A DNA stretch of 58,801 nt from Gemmatimonadales bacterium (GCA_041580775.1 JBFGDF010000004.1:1-58801), one strand, 5' to 3'; shown: positions 12,996-18,134, counted from the first letter of the stretch. Notes: generated by a model not told the origin, from the letters alone. Translations and numbers: made by a program.

Positions 12996-13412
12996 TCAGC
13001 CGGCGGCGACGCCGCTGCCCTCCGTGATCGTCACGGCGATCTCCGGTGCATGCGTGAGGGTGTGATGCACCGTACATCCCTCCGCCGCGCGCTGCACAGC
13101 GTCCCGGTACTTCTCGGGGACGCCTCCGGGGATCTTCACCTCGAGATCGAACCGGGCGAGCCGGTTGGGCTGCGCCGCCCCGACGGCCGTCACGGCCACC
13201 GTCATCCCGGTAGGATCGAGCCCGCGGGTGGCCAGAAACTGCTGGACGTACAGCGCCACGCACGTACCGAGTGAGGCGGGCAGCAGCTCCACGGGCATCG
13301 GCGCCTTGTCCGCGCCACCCGCCTTCGCCGGCTGATCCACCGTCACCTTGTGCCCGCGGATGTCCGCCGTGAAGCGCAGCGCCCCGTCCCAGGTGACCGT
13401 GATGGGCCGCAT
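12996..13412 (-). CDS. OsmC-family protein
   Basis: DQP...GG.D..P.PVELL.ASLGTC...GCTVHHTL (two Cys); TGATG coupling to trxA. Confidence 0.85.
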   Translation of the reverse strand: MRPITVTWDGALRFTADIRGHKVTVDQPAKAGGADKAPMPVELLPASLGTCVALYVQQFLATRGLDPTGMTVAVTAVGAAQPNRLARFDLEVKIPGGVPEKYRDAVQRAAEGCTVHHTLTHAPEIAVTITEGSGVAAG

Positions 13413-13756
13413 CAGACCTCCTGGGTGGCGCCGTTCAGGTGTTTGTCCAGCATGCCGCTGAAGAAGGTCCTGGGCGCGGCACCCAGCACGCCGTCCACCA
13501 CCTCGCCCTGCTTGAACAGCGCGACCGTGGGGATCGAGCGGATCCCGTACTGCTCGGCCGTGCGCGGGTTCTCGTCCACGTTGAGCTTCACGACGCGCAC
13601 GCGGCCGTCGTACTCCTTCGCGACCTCTTCGAGCACCGGCCCGACGGCACGGCATGGCCCGCACCAGGGCGCCCAGAAGTCCACCAGCACTGGTCCCTCA
13701 GCAGTCAGCACGTCCGCGGCGAACGTGGCATCGGTTGTCGGCTTCACGAACGACAT
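13412..13756 (-). CDS. trxA: Thioredoxin
   Basis: VDFWAPWCGPC, SIPT cis-Pro loop; GGAGG RBS. Confidence 0.95.
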   Translation of the reverse strand: MSFVKPTTDATFAADVLTAEGPVLVDFWAPWCGPCRAVGPVLEEVAKEYDGRVRVVKLNVDENPRTAEQYGIRSIPTVALFKQGEVVDGVLGAAPRTFFSGMLDKHLNGATQEV

Positions 13757-13912: not shown

Positions 13913-13942
13913 CCGGCCGCCGAGGGGGTTCCCGGCGGCCGG
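13913..13942 (-). terminator. Hairpin downstream of the surface-protein operon
   Basis: 10-bp perfect inverted repeat CCGGCCGCCG/CGGCGGCCGG, about 20 nt past the stop. Confidence 0.45.
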
Positions 13943-13963: not shown

Positions 13964-14374
13964 TTACGGTGTCGCTGGCGACTCCACGCTGAGCGTGTAC
14001 CCTGCGGTGGGGCGCTGGGCAAACGTGCCCCGCGTGGCGACCTCCACGACGGTCGCGCCATACGTGCCGGCAGCGCCGATACTCGGCACGAGGATCTGGG
14101 CCACGGTCCCCGCCGCGAGATTGCCGACGATCACGACGCGAACGGAGGACGCGCTCTCGCGGCGCAGGAACGTGTTGGGGAACGTCGACCGCACCGAGTC
14201 GATCTGTGCGCCGGTCACCGTGAACAGGATGCCCCCGTCGTCGAGATTGGGGGTCGTGAGCCGCACGTTCACCCAACCCGGGGTGGGTGGCGCGACGGGC
14301 TCGCTGCCGCAGGTGACCACCCCGCCCGCGAGCACGAGGCCGGCCAGCGTCGTCACGACGCGTCGGGCGGTCAT
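13964..14374 (-). CDS. Small all-beta lipoprotein, cohesin-like (inferred)
   Basis: Lipobox-like VVTC; 8-9 alternating beta-strand segments; ATGA overlap with upstream gene. Confidence 0.65.
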   Translation of the reverse strand: MTARRVVTTLAGLVLAGGVVTCGSEPVAPPTPGWVNVRLTTPNLDDGGILFTVTGAQIDSVRSTFPNTFLRRESASSVRVVIVGNLAAGTVAQILVPSIGAAGTYGATVVEVATRGTFAQRPTAGYTLSVESPATP

Positions 14375-17300
14375 TGGCCCTCCTTCCGCGGCGGCGGCGG
14401 CGCGCCGGTCGCGCTCCCGCGGGCGATGAAGGCGACAAAATCGCCGAGGTTGAACTGGCCGTCGCGGTTACCGGCCAGGTCGAGCCAGCGGCGTTGGGTC
14501 GGGTCGAGGCAGGTCTCCCCCAGGAGGTGGCTCGCGGCGCAGGCGGCGGCAACGGCCGGTGCCCGTACCACGAACACGTCCACCACCCGCGCCGAATCCC
14601 CCGCGGCCGAGACGACGGTGATCGTATCGCGGAACACGCCGTCGGCGAGATCGGCAGCCGACCGGGTCCAGGAGATGGTCCCGCTCCCCTGCCCCGCGGT
14701 CGTGAGCAGCGTGAGCCATGGCGCGGCGCCGTGTGTGGCCGTCCACGCGGTGATCGAGTCAGTCCCGCCGCTCAGCAGCAGCTGCGCGGAGCCCGGCCGG
14801 GCGCCGGCGGTGCCGGAGACGGCCGTGTCACTGGTGGCCGTGGGGTTGAGCGCGACGGCGGCGGCCCGCACCACGAGCGAGTCCACGATCCGCGCCGGGC
14901 TGCCGGTGGCCGCCGTCGAGGTGATCGTGATCGTGTCGACGTGCACGCCGACGGCCCGGCCAGCGGGGTTCCGGGTCCATCGGGCAGTCCCCGGGCCGGT
15001 CCCACTGCCGGTCGTGACGGTGATCCAGACGCCGCGGTTGGCGGCGGCGGACCACGTCGCGGTCGACGCCCCGGTGCCGGAGAGCAGCACGGCGGCGGAA
15101 TCCGCGCGCGGGACCGTTGCCCCCACCGTCACCGTGTCGGAGCGGCTGGCGGGGCTGACGTCGAGCGCCAGCGTCCCTTGCACCACGAGCGAGTCCACCA
15201 GGCGCCACGGTGAGTCGACGGCCCCTGGCGCCGCCACCGTGATCGTGTCCACGTAGATCCCCGCGGTGAGTCCCGCCGGACTCCGCGTCCACGTGACCCT
15301 GCCGCTCCCGGTCCCGCCACTCGTGCCCAGGGTGAGCCACGCGGCACTCCCGTGCGTGGCGTTCCACGTCGCGGTGGCCGCGTTGGTCCCCGTGAGCAAC
15401 ACGGCGGCGGAATCCGACCGCGGCGCCGTCGCCCCCACCGTCACCGTGTCGCGCCGCGTCCCCGGCACGACGGCGAGTGTCAACACCCGGTCGAGCTGGA
15501 GCTGGAACATGCCGCGGCCGTGCGTTGCCGCGATCAGCGTCGCGGTGGCGGGGTTGTAGGCGATGTCATACACCGCCACGTTGGGCAGGCCCTGATCCAG
15601 GGGTGCCCACGTCCCCCCACTGTCCGCCGACATGAACACGCCCAGGTCCGTCCCGATCAGGACGATGCCGCGGCTGGCCGGATCCAGGATCACGGCGTTC
15701 ACCGGAACGTCGGGAAGGGCCCCGCTCACGTCGTTCCAGGTCTGCCCGCCGTTCACCGTGCGGAAGACGTGCCCCGTGCCGAACCCCGACACAGCAACGT
15801 ACGCCGTCTGCCAATCGGCGCGATCCACCGCGATGTCCTGCACGAACCGGTTCGGCAACCCACCGGTGCGCGGGGCCCACGAAGCGCCGCCGTCGGTGGT
15901 CAGCTGCAGGAGGCCATTGTTCGTACCCACGTACACCGCCAGCCGGTTGGTCGGCGCGGGCGCGATGGCCGTGATGGTCCCCGAGCCGCCCGTCAGATCC
16001 GGGCTGATCGCGGTCCAGCTCTCGGCGCGATCGGTGGTCCGGTAGAGGCGGTACGTCCCGAAGTAGAGCGTGGCCGCGTTGACGGGGTCCATCACGAGCG
16101 GCGGGATGAACTGCGCCCGGTCGCCGGCGGCGATCCCGTTTACCTTCAGCACGAAGCCGCCGCCGTCAGACCGGCGCGGCCCGCCGATCCCACTGTTGGC
16201 CGTCCACTGGGTCTCGGCGTACCGCACGGTGGGGTTGTCGTGGTCGATGGCCGTGTAGCCCCCATCGGCGCCCAACACGAAGAGCCAGTTCGGCACCCCG
16301 GTGTACTGCAGCGTGCCGTTGTCCTGCGTGCCGCCCAGCACGATCGTCCGGTCGCTCGGGTGGAGCGAGATCCCCTCGTAGAACTGCGTGAGCTCGAGGC
16401 CCGTATTCAGGCTCGTCCAGCTCGTGCCGCCGTTGGTGGAGCGGTAGATCCCGCCGTCGTTGGCCGCGTACACCGTCTGCGGGTCCTGCGGGTCGAACGT
16501 CATCAGGTGCTGATCCACGTGGATGAAGCTGGTGATGTTCTGGAACGTGGCGCCGGCATCGGTGGAGCGGTACAGGCTCACGCCCCCGAAGTAGATCGTG
16601 GTGGGCGTCGTGGGATGCACCGTGATGTACATGTCGTACCAGCACTGGGAGCCGCACGAGGCACCGCTCGCCGCCAGCGGCGTCCAGGTGCCGCCGCCGT
16701 CAAGCGTGCGCCAGATGCCCAGCAGCTGGCTCGTGGACGTATTGTGGACCGACGCATACAGCGTATCGGGCGCCGTCGGCGTGAGCGCGAGGTTGATGCG
16801 ACCCACCTGCGCGGTGGGAAAGCCGGACGGGAGCGCCGTCCACGTCGCGCCGCGGTCGACGGTCTTGTAGACGCCGCGCGTGCGAATCGCCGCGTAGAGA
16901 ATGGAGTCGTTGGTGGGGTGGATCACCAGATCGGTGGCGGCGCACGTGGGAAAACTGGAGCAGCCCAGCGCCCCGACCAGCAGCTCGCTCCAGGTGCCGC
17001 CGCCGTCCGTGGAGCGGAACAGCCCCAAGTCACTCGCCGCGAACACCGTGGTCGTCGCCGGCGTCCCGGCGGTACTCGGCGCGAGCACGACGCGGGAGAT
17101 CCGGGCGCCGCCGGCCCCGGGCGCGAACGCGCTCGCGCCGAGCCGCGTCCAGGTCGCGCCGCCGTCCGTGGAGCGGAGCAGTCCGCACCCGTAGTAGCTG
17201 TCGCCGGAAAAATGCTGCTCGCCGGTGCCCGCGTAGACGATATCGGGATTCACGGGATCGAGTGCGATCGAGCCCATCGCGAGCGAGCATTCGCGGTCCG

Positions 17301-17694
17301 TGAGCGGCGTCCACGAAGCACCGCCGTCCACCGTCTTCCACACGCCCCCCTGCGCGCCACCGACGTAGATGACGCTGGCGTTCGTGGGATGCACGGCAAT
17401 CGCCGACATCCGGCCCACCGAGGTCCCGAAGAGGGGGATGGCGTTGGGCCCGAGCGGCTGCCACTGCGTGCCGCTGATCGGCGGCGGCGCGCCAAGGAGG
17501 CGGGCCCCACGCGTGGCCGCCAGTTGCGCGCGCGCGCGTTGCAGGGCGTTCGGCGGAATCCGCTCGAACGGGTACGCCCGGCGCCGGTAGGCATCCTCCC
17601 AGCGCAGGCGTGGGTTGTCGTCGGGCTCCTGCGCGCGGGCGCCGGGAACCAGCGCGAGTGCCGCGCAGGCAGTCACCAGCAGGGTCCGTGTCAC
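14371..17694 (-). CDS. Secreted BNR/Asp-box (VPS10/sortilin-like) beta-propeller protein with three BACON-like repeats and a C-terminal dockerin-like motif
   Basis: Signal peptide ARAQ; many S/TxDGGxTW Asp-boxes; YAGTGE, HVDQH, GGTQDNG; three WL/ITxxxxSGTG.G..W repeats; DLAGNRDGQFNLGDF tail. Confidence 0.88.
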   Translation of the reverse strand: MTRTLLVTACAALALVPGARAQEPDDNPRLRWEDAYRRRAYPFERIPPNALQRARAQLAATRGARLLGAPPPISGTQWQPLGPNAIPLFGTSVGRMSAIAVHPTNASVIYVGGAQGGVWKTVDGGASWTPLTDRECSLAMGSIALDPVNPDIVYAGTGEQHFSGDSYYGCGLLRSTDGGATWTRLGASAFAPGAGGARISRVVLAPSTAGTPATTTVFAASDLGLFRSTDGGGTWSELLVGALGCSSFPTCAATDLVIHPTNDSILYAAIRTRGVYKTVDRGATWTALPSGFPTAQVGRINLALTPTAPDTLYASVHNTSTSQLLGIWRTLDGGGTWTPLAASGASCGSQCWYDMYITVHPTTPTTIYFGGVSLYRSTDAGATFQNITSFIHVDQHLMTFDPQDPQTVYAANDGGIYRSTNGGTSWTSLNTGLELTQFYEGISLHPSDRTIVLGGTQDNGTLQYTGVPNWLFVLGADGGYTAIDHDNPTVRYAETQWTANSGIGGPRRSDGGGFVLKVNGIAAGDRAQFIPPLVMDPVNAATLYFGTYRLYRTTDRAESWTAISPDLTGGSGTITAIAPAPTNRLAVYVGTNNGLLQLTTDGGASWAPRTGGLPNRFVQDIAVDRADWQTAYVAVSGFGTGHVFRTVNGGQTWNDVSGALPDVPVNAVILDPASRGIVLIGTDLGVFMSADSGGTWAPLDQGLPNVAVYDIAYNPATATLIAATHGRGMFQLQLDRVLTLAVVPGTRRDTVTVGATAPRSDSAAVLLTGTNAATATWNATHGSAAWLTLGTSGGTGSGRVTWTRSPAGLTAGIYVDTITVAAPGAVDSPWRLVDSLVVQGTLALDVSPASRSDTVTVGATVPRADSAAVLLSGTGASTATWSAAANRGVWITVTTGSGTGPGTARWTRNPAGRAVGVHVDTITITSTAATGSPARIVDSLVVRAAAVALNPTATSDTAVSGTAGARPGSAQLLLSGGTDSITAWTATHGAAPWLTLLTTAGQGSGTISWTRSAADLADGVFRDTITVVSAAGDSARVVDVFVVRAPAVAAACAASHLLGETCLDPTQRRWLDLAGNRDGQFNLGDFVAFIARGSATGAPPPPRKEGQ
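14565..15480 (-). repeat. Three tandem ~100-aa BACON-like domain repeats
   Basis: Protein repeat DTVTVGAT.PR.DSAAVLL.GT...W...W.T...SG.G.G...WTR..AG...G...DTIT; DNA similarity between ~15090-15140 and ~15400-15450. Confidence 0.8.
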
Positions 17695-18134
17695 CGGCCA
17701 CTCCCCGGCCCGGGGGTGAGCATGAAGATCGCCGGCGCGCTCGTCCCCTCCGCGGTCGTCACCGTAACCTCGTAGTGGCCCGGCAGCAGCGGCGCGGGCG
17801 GCACTTCACTCGTGCTCGGGGTCTCTTTCGGAACGAACACCACGATGCGGGTCCCTCCATTGGCCGATGGGACGTCCAGAAGCACGACCGGCCCCACCCG
17901 GACCGCGTTGCCCACCGGCGCGAACCCCGTGCCCTCGATCGTGAGGCGGATGGGATACGCCACCCCGGCCGGCCCGGCCGCGGGCTCGAGCCGCGTGATC
18001 ACCGGTCCCACCGCCACGGCGCCGGCGTTCGGGGTTCCACCCGGCCGCGGGCATCCGAGCAGCACGCCGCACACCGCCAGGCCCGCAAGCCGACGACTCA
18101 GCTCCCTGCGACCCCACACGACCGACCTCCCCAC
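17691..18134 (-). CDS. IPT/TIG-domain lipoprotein
   Basis: LLGC lipobox; PVITRLEPAAG, LTIEGTGF, YEVTVTT..GTS; start uncertain; GTGA overlap with next gene. Confidence 0.75.
   Translation of the reverse strand: MGRSVVWGRRELSRRLAGLAVCGVLLGCPRPGGTPNAGAVAVGPVITRLEPAAGPAGVAYPIRLTIEGTGFAPVGNAVRVGPVVLLDVPSANGGTRIVVFVPKETPSTSEVPPAPLLPGHYEVTVTTAEGTSAPAIFMLTPGPGSGR

Follow-up and report, generated by a model that had tools for sequence, protein, structure and literature searches.

A candidate sequence-cryptic cohesin-dockerin cassette pairs secreted proteins with a small lipoprotein in Gemmatimonadota

Genes B and C are neighbours on a 58,801-nucleotide stretch of a Gemmatimonadales genome (GCA_041580775.1 JBFGDF010000004.1:1-58801; the whole stretch is called the window below), and on balance they probably constitute a divergent, non-cellulosomal cohesin-dockerin cassette that tethers its cargo to a membrane. 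Gene B encodes the cargo, a putative secreted protein ending in a dockerin-like tail, and gene C encodes a small predicted lipoprotein with a cohesin-like fold. This reading draws on two modelled folds, on the adjacency and co-occurrence of tail and lipoprotein across the phylum, on the diversity of the cargo and on natural fusions of the two partners. The window constitutes contig C4; the assembly is 3.15 Mb in size and 71% complete, and its named relatives are Gemmatimonadota metagenome-assembled genomes. The features of the pair are as follows:

14371-17694, minus strand: gene B (cargo), 1107 amino acids (aa), with a signal peptide, a Sortilin-Vps10/BNR beta-propeller region, three BACON_2-like repeats and a dockerin-like C-terminal tail
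14575-15489, minus strand: 'stalk' of three tandem Ig-like repeats of about 100 aa each, BACON_2-like (B residues ~736-1040)
14425-14544, minus strand: dockerin-like tail core (B residues 1051-1090), comprising a helix ending in LLG, a linker helix, a calcium-loop-like motif and a final helix, with a Cys-x9-Cys pair
14440-14481, minus strand: single conserved calcium-loop-like motif, D-x-x-G-N-x-[ND]-G-x-[FY]-[DN]-x-G-D (B residues 1072-1085), a putative calcium-binding site
13964-14374, minus strand: gene C, predicted 136-aa lipoprotein with a cohesin-like beta-sandwich
14309-14374, minus strand: lipoprotein signal peptide and lipobox of C, ending in the invariant Cys22
13979-14293, minus strand: cohesin-like domain of C (residues ~28-132), with 8-9 strands

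The N-terminus of B is signal-peptide-like, and the protein matches Sortilin-Vps10/BNR in Pfam (E 4.5e-34) and, barely at threshold, the NCBIfam F510_1955 glycosylhydrolase model (175.2 bits, cut-off 175). Its three repeats (residues 736-845, 842-943 and 943-1027) show inter-repeat identities of 58% and 46% in a self-BLAST comparison and match Pfam PF19190 BACON_2 in two stretches (E 3.6e-8, 33.7 bits, cut-off 25). An earlier sequence-only reading of the window had described three translationally coupled genes, the second encoding a secreted 1107-aa propeller protein with three BACON domains. Both descriptions hold, the junction of B with the upstream gene A being a GTGA overlap and that of B with C an ATGA overlap in which the start of C lies over the stop of B. 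The tail was likewise recognised there, but its position, given as about 14417-14556, is corrected by count to that listed above. Within the signal peptide of B (17629-17694, minus strand) a Cys stands in a lipobox-like V-T-A-C context nine residues from the start; the hydrophobic run ahead of it is very short and an A-x-A-type site lies at about residue 21, and judging from these residues a signal peptidase I site seems more likely than a lipobox.

The last 89 residues of B match no Pfam or NCBIfam family even at E<=10. Thirty-one tails nevertheless align across about 45 residues, six of which (L, D, G, N, G and D) are invariant, in a pattern that comprises an LLG-ending helix, a second helix, a D-x-x-G-N-x-N-G-x-Y-D-x-G-D loop and a final amphipathic helix. 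The C-x9-C pair of the window-type tail recurs at loci L004 and L006, and Cys pairs of this kind, like the CxxC of one lipoprotein subfamily described below, fit an extracytoplasmic location. A six-frame regular-expression scan of the whole assembly finds the tail motif just twice, once in the window and once on contig C85. In both instances it lies 21-26 residues from the C-terminus of a long open reading frame (ORF) and a homologous lipoprotein comes next, a placement that is beyond chance. The C85 tail terminates a 747-aa M6-type metallopeptidase, and the small lipoprotein encoded directly 3' of it is 32% identical to gene C (E 5e-10); the lipoprotein profile finds exactly these two copies in the assembly. 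The cargo thus changes from one copy to the other, but the tag is accompanied by the small lipoprotein in both.

Comparison of the tails by hhalign with 12 canonical dockerins of the phylum gives an alignment of 42 columns (E 5.6e-4, probability 30%), in which the LLG helix falls on dockerin helix 1, linker falls on linker and the tail loop falls on the second calcium (F-hand) loop. The tail loop carries a two-residue insertion after its first Asp, just as had been proposed from the sequence. The modelled tail of a fused homologue matches a type I dockerin along its whole length, with 56 of 62 residues aligned, and the model thus agrees with the three-helix fold of about 60-70 residues that defines dockerins and is likewise C-terminal on a secreted protein. 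Dockerins also possess two duplicated calcium-binding F-hand segments, which the tails lack, the first segment retaining only its LLG-ending helix. As the first calcium loop is not conserved, the tail is described here as a one-loop dockerin-like domain. The earlier term 'half-dockerin' is thereby refined rather than overturned, since the first loop is indeed missing but the modelled fold spans the entire dockerin. A Pfam search of the 31 tails yields a single EF-hand_6 match (E 0.071), and weak matches to Dockerin_1 (PF00404) in five related genomes are located elsewhere than the tails.

Gene C matches no Pfam or NCBIfam family. Cys22 of its hydrophobic leader is invariant in all 92 aligned homologues, and in all 29 homologues read from their loci a hydrophobic run precedes a Cys whose -1 position is G, A, S, T or N. 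C therewith has the basic N-region, hydrophobic region and lipobox with invariant Cys by which bacterial lipoproteins are recognised, and is predicted to be one. An AlphaFold2 model of C built on a 92-row alignment is all-beta, with a predicted local distance difference test (pLDDT) score of 90.6 overall and 98 across residues 31-131, and a predicted template modelling (pTM) score of 0.78 with about 105 of 136 residues ordered. With this model Foldseek returns nothing from the PDB at E<=1e-3, the ranked list consisting mostly of cohesins with 5nrm_A the best (E 9.6e-3). In an all-against-all PDB structure search the top 18 and top 19 rows for two independent models of the lipoprotein domain are cohesins, in keeping with the all-beta, cohesin-like sandwich first suggested by the order of its strands. 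At the level of the models, the domain is a nine-stranded jelly-roll beta-sandwich superimposable on solved cohesins. In the ESM Atlas C falls among unnamed Gemmatimonadota clusters (0.98), and the nearest named cluster, 'Cohesin' at 0.83, serves as a lead only.

The lipoprotein family comprises 1151 clusters at E<=1e-3 and 635 at E<=1e-10 when a 12-row profile is searched with HMMER against 1.84 billion representatives, and among the best 150 of the 1151 clusters all but two are 124-157 aa long; a word-indexed search finds 11 relatives. One subfamily with an inserted CxxC segment (L001, L013, L024, L031 and L032) is always located behind M6 peptidases of one tail subtype. Tail and anchor subtypes therefore appear to diversify together, as expected if whole cassettes duplicate.

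Across 401 Gemmatimonadota genomes, including the unpublished G057 and G182, the lipoprotein profile matches 181 (128 of 166 in the window's family, f1; 35 of 70 in f7; none of 13 in f10) and a 31-row tail profile matches 208 (129 of 166 in f1). Comparison of the two lists by hand, which is descriptive and not a test, places both elements in 178 genomes, the lipoprotein only in three (G210, G080 and G292), the tail only in 30 and neither in 190. A pattern scan of the genomes of 185,579 species with a 12-row alignment confirmed 24 loci, all labelled Gemmatimonadota, a result that does not bound the range of the pair because the pattern is narrow. The two genes are also physically linked. In 28 of 31 loci the tail-bearing ORF stops between -4 and +35 nucleotides (nt) from the point, a few residues inside the lipoprotein gene, at which the match to the lipoprotein profile begins; this set includes two loci of the window's own genome and one of the unpublished G057. 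In a second set of 24 loci, which overlaps the first at at least four places, a same-strand tail lies within 400 nt of the lipoprotein in 22. The three exceptions in the larger set (L020, L026 and L030) all belong to one genus and represent a second lipoprotein copy of a distinct subtype (L020/L109 in G375, L026 in G238 and L030/L110 in G038). In G375 a tail-bearing 1170-aa ORF is found 3.2 kb downstream, beyond opposite-strand genes, and in G038 there is no tail-bearing ORF within the 11-kb locus.

The cargo is diverse. According to Pfam, the 25 full-length tail-bearing ORFs fall into Peptidase_M6 (13), PPC without M6 (5, two of them with an NHL/Vgb-lyase-like propeller), Calx-beta (5) and Sortilin/BNR (2, both orthologues of the window's protein). 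Co-occurrence of tail and lipoprotein across genomes and cargo was, with the fold of the lipoprotein, one of the two computational tests on which the sequence-only reading had staked its proposal in advance; the cohesin-like models pass the latter, and the pair passes the former with both elements in 178 of the 401 genomes and with four classes of cargo.

In some genomes the two partners are a single protein. Several lipoprotein-profile matches in families f7 and f6 lie inside open frames of 1300-1600 aa, and 13 single-frame fusion ORFs of about 1150-1940 aa are present in six genomes (G199, G229, G342, G400, G441 and G442; loci L033-L036 and L057-L081), while other genomes of the same family as the fusion carriers retain two genes. 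The fusions run from the cargo to the tail, then through a 50-74-residue linker enriched in Arg, Gly, Pro and Ala to a hydrophobic segment with a lipobox-like Cys, and end in the cohesin-like domain. The internal Cys is kept in all 13, and seven of them have no ATG, GTG or TTG within 40 codons ahead of it. The G+C content of the linker by codon position is 0.75, 0.84 and 0.77, compared with 0.77, 0.50 and 0.86 and 0.74, 0.48 and 0.84 in the flanking coding parts. Two further candidates from the window's own family, P0155 (949 aa) and P0162 (708 aa), were not counted as fusions since the sequence between tail and leader looks out of frame; they are probably frameshifted gene calls. An AlphaFold2 model of the last 257 residues of one natural fusion, based on an alignment of 70 rows (13 fused sequences, 27 tails and 30 mature domains), gives a tail of four helices at pLDDT 96-98, a linker below 60 and a domain at 95-98, with a pTM of 0.71. 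With 170 of the 257 residues ordered this value would fit one rigid body that holds both tail and domain, whereas a free tail should give about 0.4; as a single-chain fold with neither negative control, predicted aligned error nor coordinates, the model is only a stand-in for docking.

The same arrangement might be expected if the lipoprotein bound the tail in order to serve the cargo in the periplasm as its dedicated chaperone, pilot or latency factor, keeping it inactive or passing it to outer-membrane secretion, and did not act as a permanent anchor. Translationally coupled pairs in a 1:1 ratio are typical of enzymes and their chaperones or inhibitors, proteases, for which latency control is common, are the most frequent cargo (13/25), and secretins are encoded in all four genomes checked, so that an exit route exists. 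This explanation is nevertheless considered unlikely, if by no means fanciful. The element that stays constant is the tail and not the catalytic domain, and propellers and Calx-beta proteins share the same pair. Furthermore, the natural fusions are easier to understand if the association is permanent than if it is transient, and the folds of cohesins and dockerins are known as stable assembly modules.

Several results weigh against the cohesin-dockerin reading itself. Canonical models do not recognise either partner: Pfam Cohesin (PF00963) matches none of the 92 lipoprotein family members at E<=10 and nothing in the window's own genome, and Pfam Dockerin_1 matches none of the 31 tails. Sequence-profile searches of the PDB return no match at E<=10 with the lipoproteins and no dockerin with the tails, for which the best matches (E 0.2) are unrelated enzymes, and hhalign finds no significant similarity between the lipoprotein and 15 canonical cohesins of the same phylum (probability 0.2%, E 0.27). 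The tail conserves one calcium loop only, the second. In 30 genomes there is a tail but the lipoprotein is not detected, and three of the 31 and two of the 24 loci have a lipoprotein with no adjacent tail. The co-occurrence table overstates its support because related genomes are not independent, and the pTM of the fused C-terminus carries the limits given above. Finally, the fused forms retain a linker rich in Arg and a hydrophobic segment inside the chain, a topology that simple docking in the periplasm does not easily explain.

Points of this kind could be accommodated if the two partners did not bind each other at all, the tail being a calcium-stabilised C-terminal cap or an oligomerisation element and the lipoprotein having a role of its own in the same operon, for example in binding a substrate or the cell wall. 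The cohesin likeness of the lipoprotein is seen at the level of the fold only, the tail reaches no better than E 5.6e-4 in a single profile-profile comparison, the beta-sandwich is a frequent design among binding modules, and both orphan lipoproteins and tail-only genomes occur. Such independence is regarded as very unlikely, as it has to contend with tight adjacency at 28/31 and 22/24 loci across four cargo classes, with 178 genomes that have both elements against three with the lipoprotein only, and with 13 natural fusions and the pTM of 0.71, as well as with the separate likeness of each partner to one member of an established binding pair. Least credible, and highly improbable, is a third alternative, in which the tail region would serve as a C-terminal sorting signal that an enzyme or secretion system dedicated to it processes, with the lipoprotein a pathway component or by-product: several fusions do have a Cys-containing motif after the tail, followed by a brief hydrophobic stretch rich in Ala, Leu and Gly and then by a segment rich in Arg, which loosely recalls motif-transmembrane-basic tags such as PEP-CTERM and MYXO-CTERM, but in B of the window and in the other unfused proteins read the chain stops a little beyond the tail and includes no hydrophobic segment there, the tail is modelled as a folded helical module (pLDDT 96-98) and not a transmembrane tag, and no conserved sortase-like gene is seen beside the pair, although no systematic search for one was made.

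What is proposed here is a cohesin-dockerin-like cassette. B would be exported via its N-terminal signal peptide and its tail of about 45 residues would fold as a dockerin-like three-helix module with one calcium loop. C would be exported as well, lipidated at Cys22 and held in a membrane, where its cohesin-like sandwich would bind the tail of the protein encoded just upstream, with calcium probably sitting in the conserved tail loop on binding. In this way the propeller would be tethered to the cell envelope via the three BACON-like repeats, in a 1:1 ratio of B and C that translational coupling may help to set. Across Gemmatimonadota the same tag-plus-anchor pair would be used for other cargo, mostly M6 metallopeptidases. 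The cassette could face either side of the envelope: the presence of secretins makes an outer-membrane route possible, and a search for type IX secretion system C-terminal domains gave no matches but is uninformative, as control genomes were equally silent. A bolder extension is distinctly unlikely to hold in full. It envisages a phylum-wide 'bring-your-own-anchor' display in which each secreted enzyme has a private cohesin-like lipoprotein that captures a one-loop dockerin tail at the cell surface. In some Gemmatimonadaceae the pair would be a single precursor in which the internal lipoprotein signal is still used, and cleavage and lipidation at the internal Cys would give an exact 1:1 ratio of cargo and anchor.

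The pair is set in a contig with a G+C content of about 72%, and two further features flank it:

17691-18134, minus strand: gene A, 147 aa, lipoprotein
~13913-13942, minus strand: GC-rich hairpin 3' of gene C, with a 12-bp (inner) stem and a 6-nt loop

In gene A a TIG domain is matched weakly (E 0.0042), and the NCBIfam 'choice-of-anchor Z' repeat scores 27.9 bits, below its cut-off of 30. The gene was considered as a third component of the system and rejected. A homologue is found solely beside the closest Sortilin-type locus, L037 (58% identity), and none occurs elsewhere in the same genome or in the other large loci; gene A is accordingly placed outside the conserved module, though it is translationally coupled to B. 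The hairpin had been taken to close the gene set. It is indeed present, with a folding free energy of -43.8 kcal/mol and a z-score of -2.24 (5 of 200 shuffles fold equally well), but it has no T-run and a scan for consensus terminators finds no sites. Just downstream of it a short AT-rich island interrupts the GC-rich contig (13830-13870 of the window). The island holds a strong sigma-70-like site on the minus strand that consists of TTGACA, a 17-nt spacer and TACTAT with TG ahead of the second hexamer (10/12), upstream of a thioredoxin-like ORF (13412-13756, minus strand).

The cohesin-dockerin pairing is best known from the cellulosomes of Firmicutes, and its roles elsewhere are mostly unexplored. 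The pair described here is invisible to standard sequence models and yet is found in about 45-52% of the 401 sampled Gemmatimonadota genomes, depending on whether they are counted by the lipoprotein (181) or by the tail (208). If the two partners do bind, this would explain how an abundant and poorly studied phylum of soil and marine bacteria retains its secreted hydrolases at the cell, and would provide an annotation for more than 1000 clusters of 'hypothetical' small lipoproteins. It would also make compact tag-anchor pairs, which might be orthogonal, available for displaying proteins in diderm bacteria.

The natural reference is the type I cohesin-dockerin complex of clostridial cellulosomes (C. 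thermocellum, PDB 1ohz / 2ccl), from which the Gemmatimonadota pair differs in several respects. The Pfam Cohesin and Dockerin_1 models miss it, and whereas a clostridial dockerin has two calcium loops the tail keeps only the second, with its two-residue insertion. Instead of a scaffoldin with several cohesins, each protein has a single cohesin and each cargo gene its own anchor gene, and in place of carbohydrate-active cargo there are mostly M6 peptidases, in a diderm host phylum. The system is not a cellulosome, because it has no scaffoldin, a single domain on each protein of 124-157 aa, 1:1 cassettes and M6 peptidases as 13 of 25 cargo proteins.

The partners of non-cellulosomal cohesins carry two-loop dockerins or related modules. 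It is the non-cellulosomal cohesins of Archaeoglobus fulgidus (2xdh) and of Clostridium perfringens GH84C/GH33 (2w1n, 2vo8 and 2o4e) that the Gemmatimonadota pair resembles most closely, although these are recognisable by sequence and are not small lipoproteins encoded right after a presumed partner. The surface scaffoldins of Firmicutes, which are anchored by SLH domains or by sortase, share the logic of a cell-bound cohesin that captures a dockerin-tagged secreted protein; here, in a diderm, a 136-aa protein would instead be anchored by a lipid at its N-terminus, and a Pfam scan of gene C finds no SLH or LPXTG. As far as the accessible parts of the literature go, they hold no account of this pair in Gemmatimonadota or of a lipoprotein cohesin encoded beside a dockerin-tagged partner; Peer et al. 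2009, reportedly a survey of non-cellulosomal cohesins and dockerins, may mention related modules. In a 2008 genome paper (PMC2386152), motifs resembling dockerins and cohesins in a diderm are a matter of speculation and are put to no test.

A further comparison lies within the phylum itself. In the deep branch f10 all 13 genomes sampled encode cohesins and dockerins that Pfam detects (for example L111-L130 in G002, G005, G011, G017, G024, G030 and G032). Each genome has 2-18 matches to cohesin and 18-39 scored matches to dockerin; the cohesins occur in tandem within single ORFs, and the dockerins have two loops. From its gene content this repertoire looks like an extensive cellulosome-like system outside Firmicutes. 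The lipoprotein and tail profiles each match none of the 13 genomes, so that the canonical repertoire and the cryptic cassette have a complementary distribution, and the canonical cohesins and dockerins of f10 therefore offer an ancestral source for a divergent offshoot. Overall, these comparisons lead us to regard the pair as a new, sequence-cryptic variant of the cohesin-dockerin system that is organised as one-to-one cassettes.

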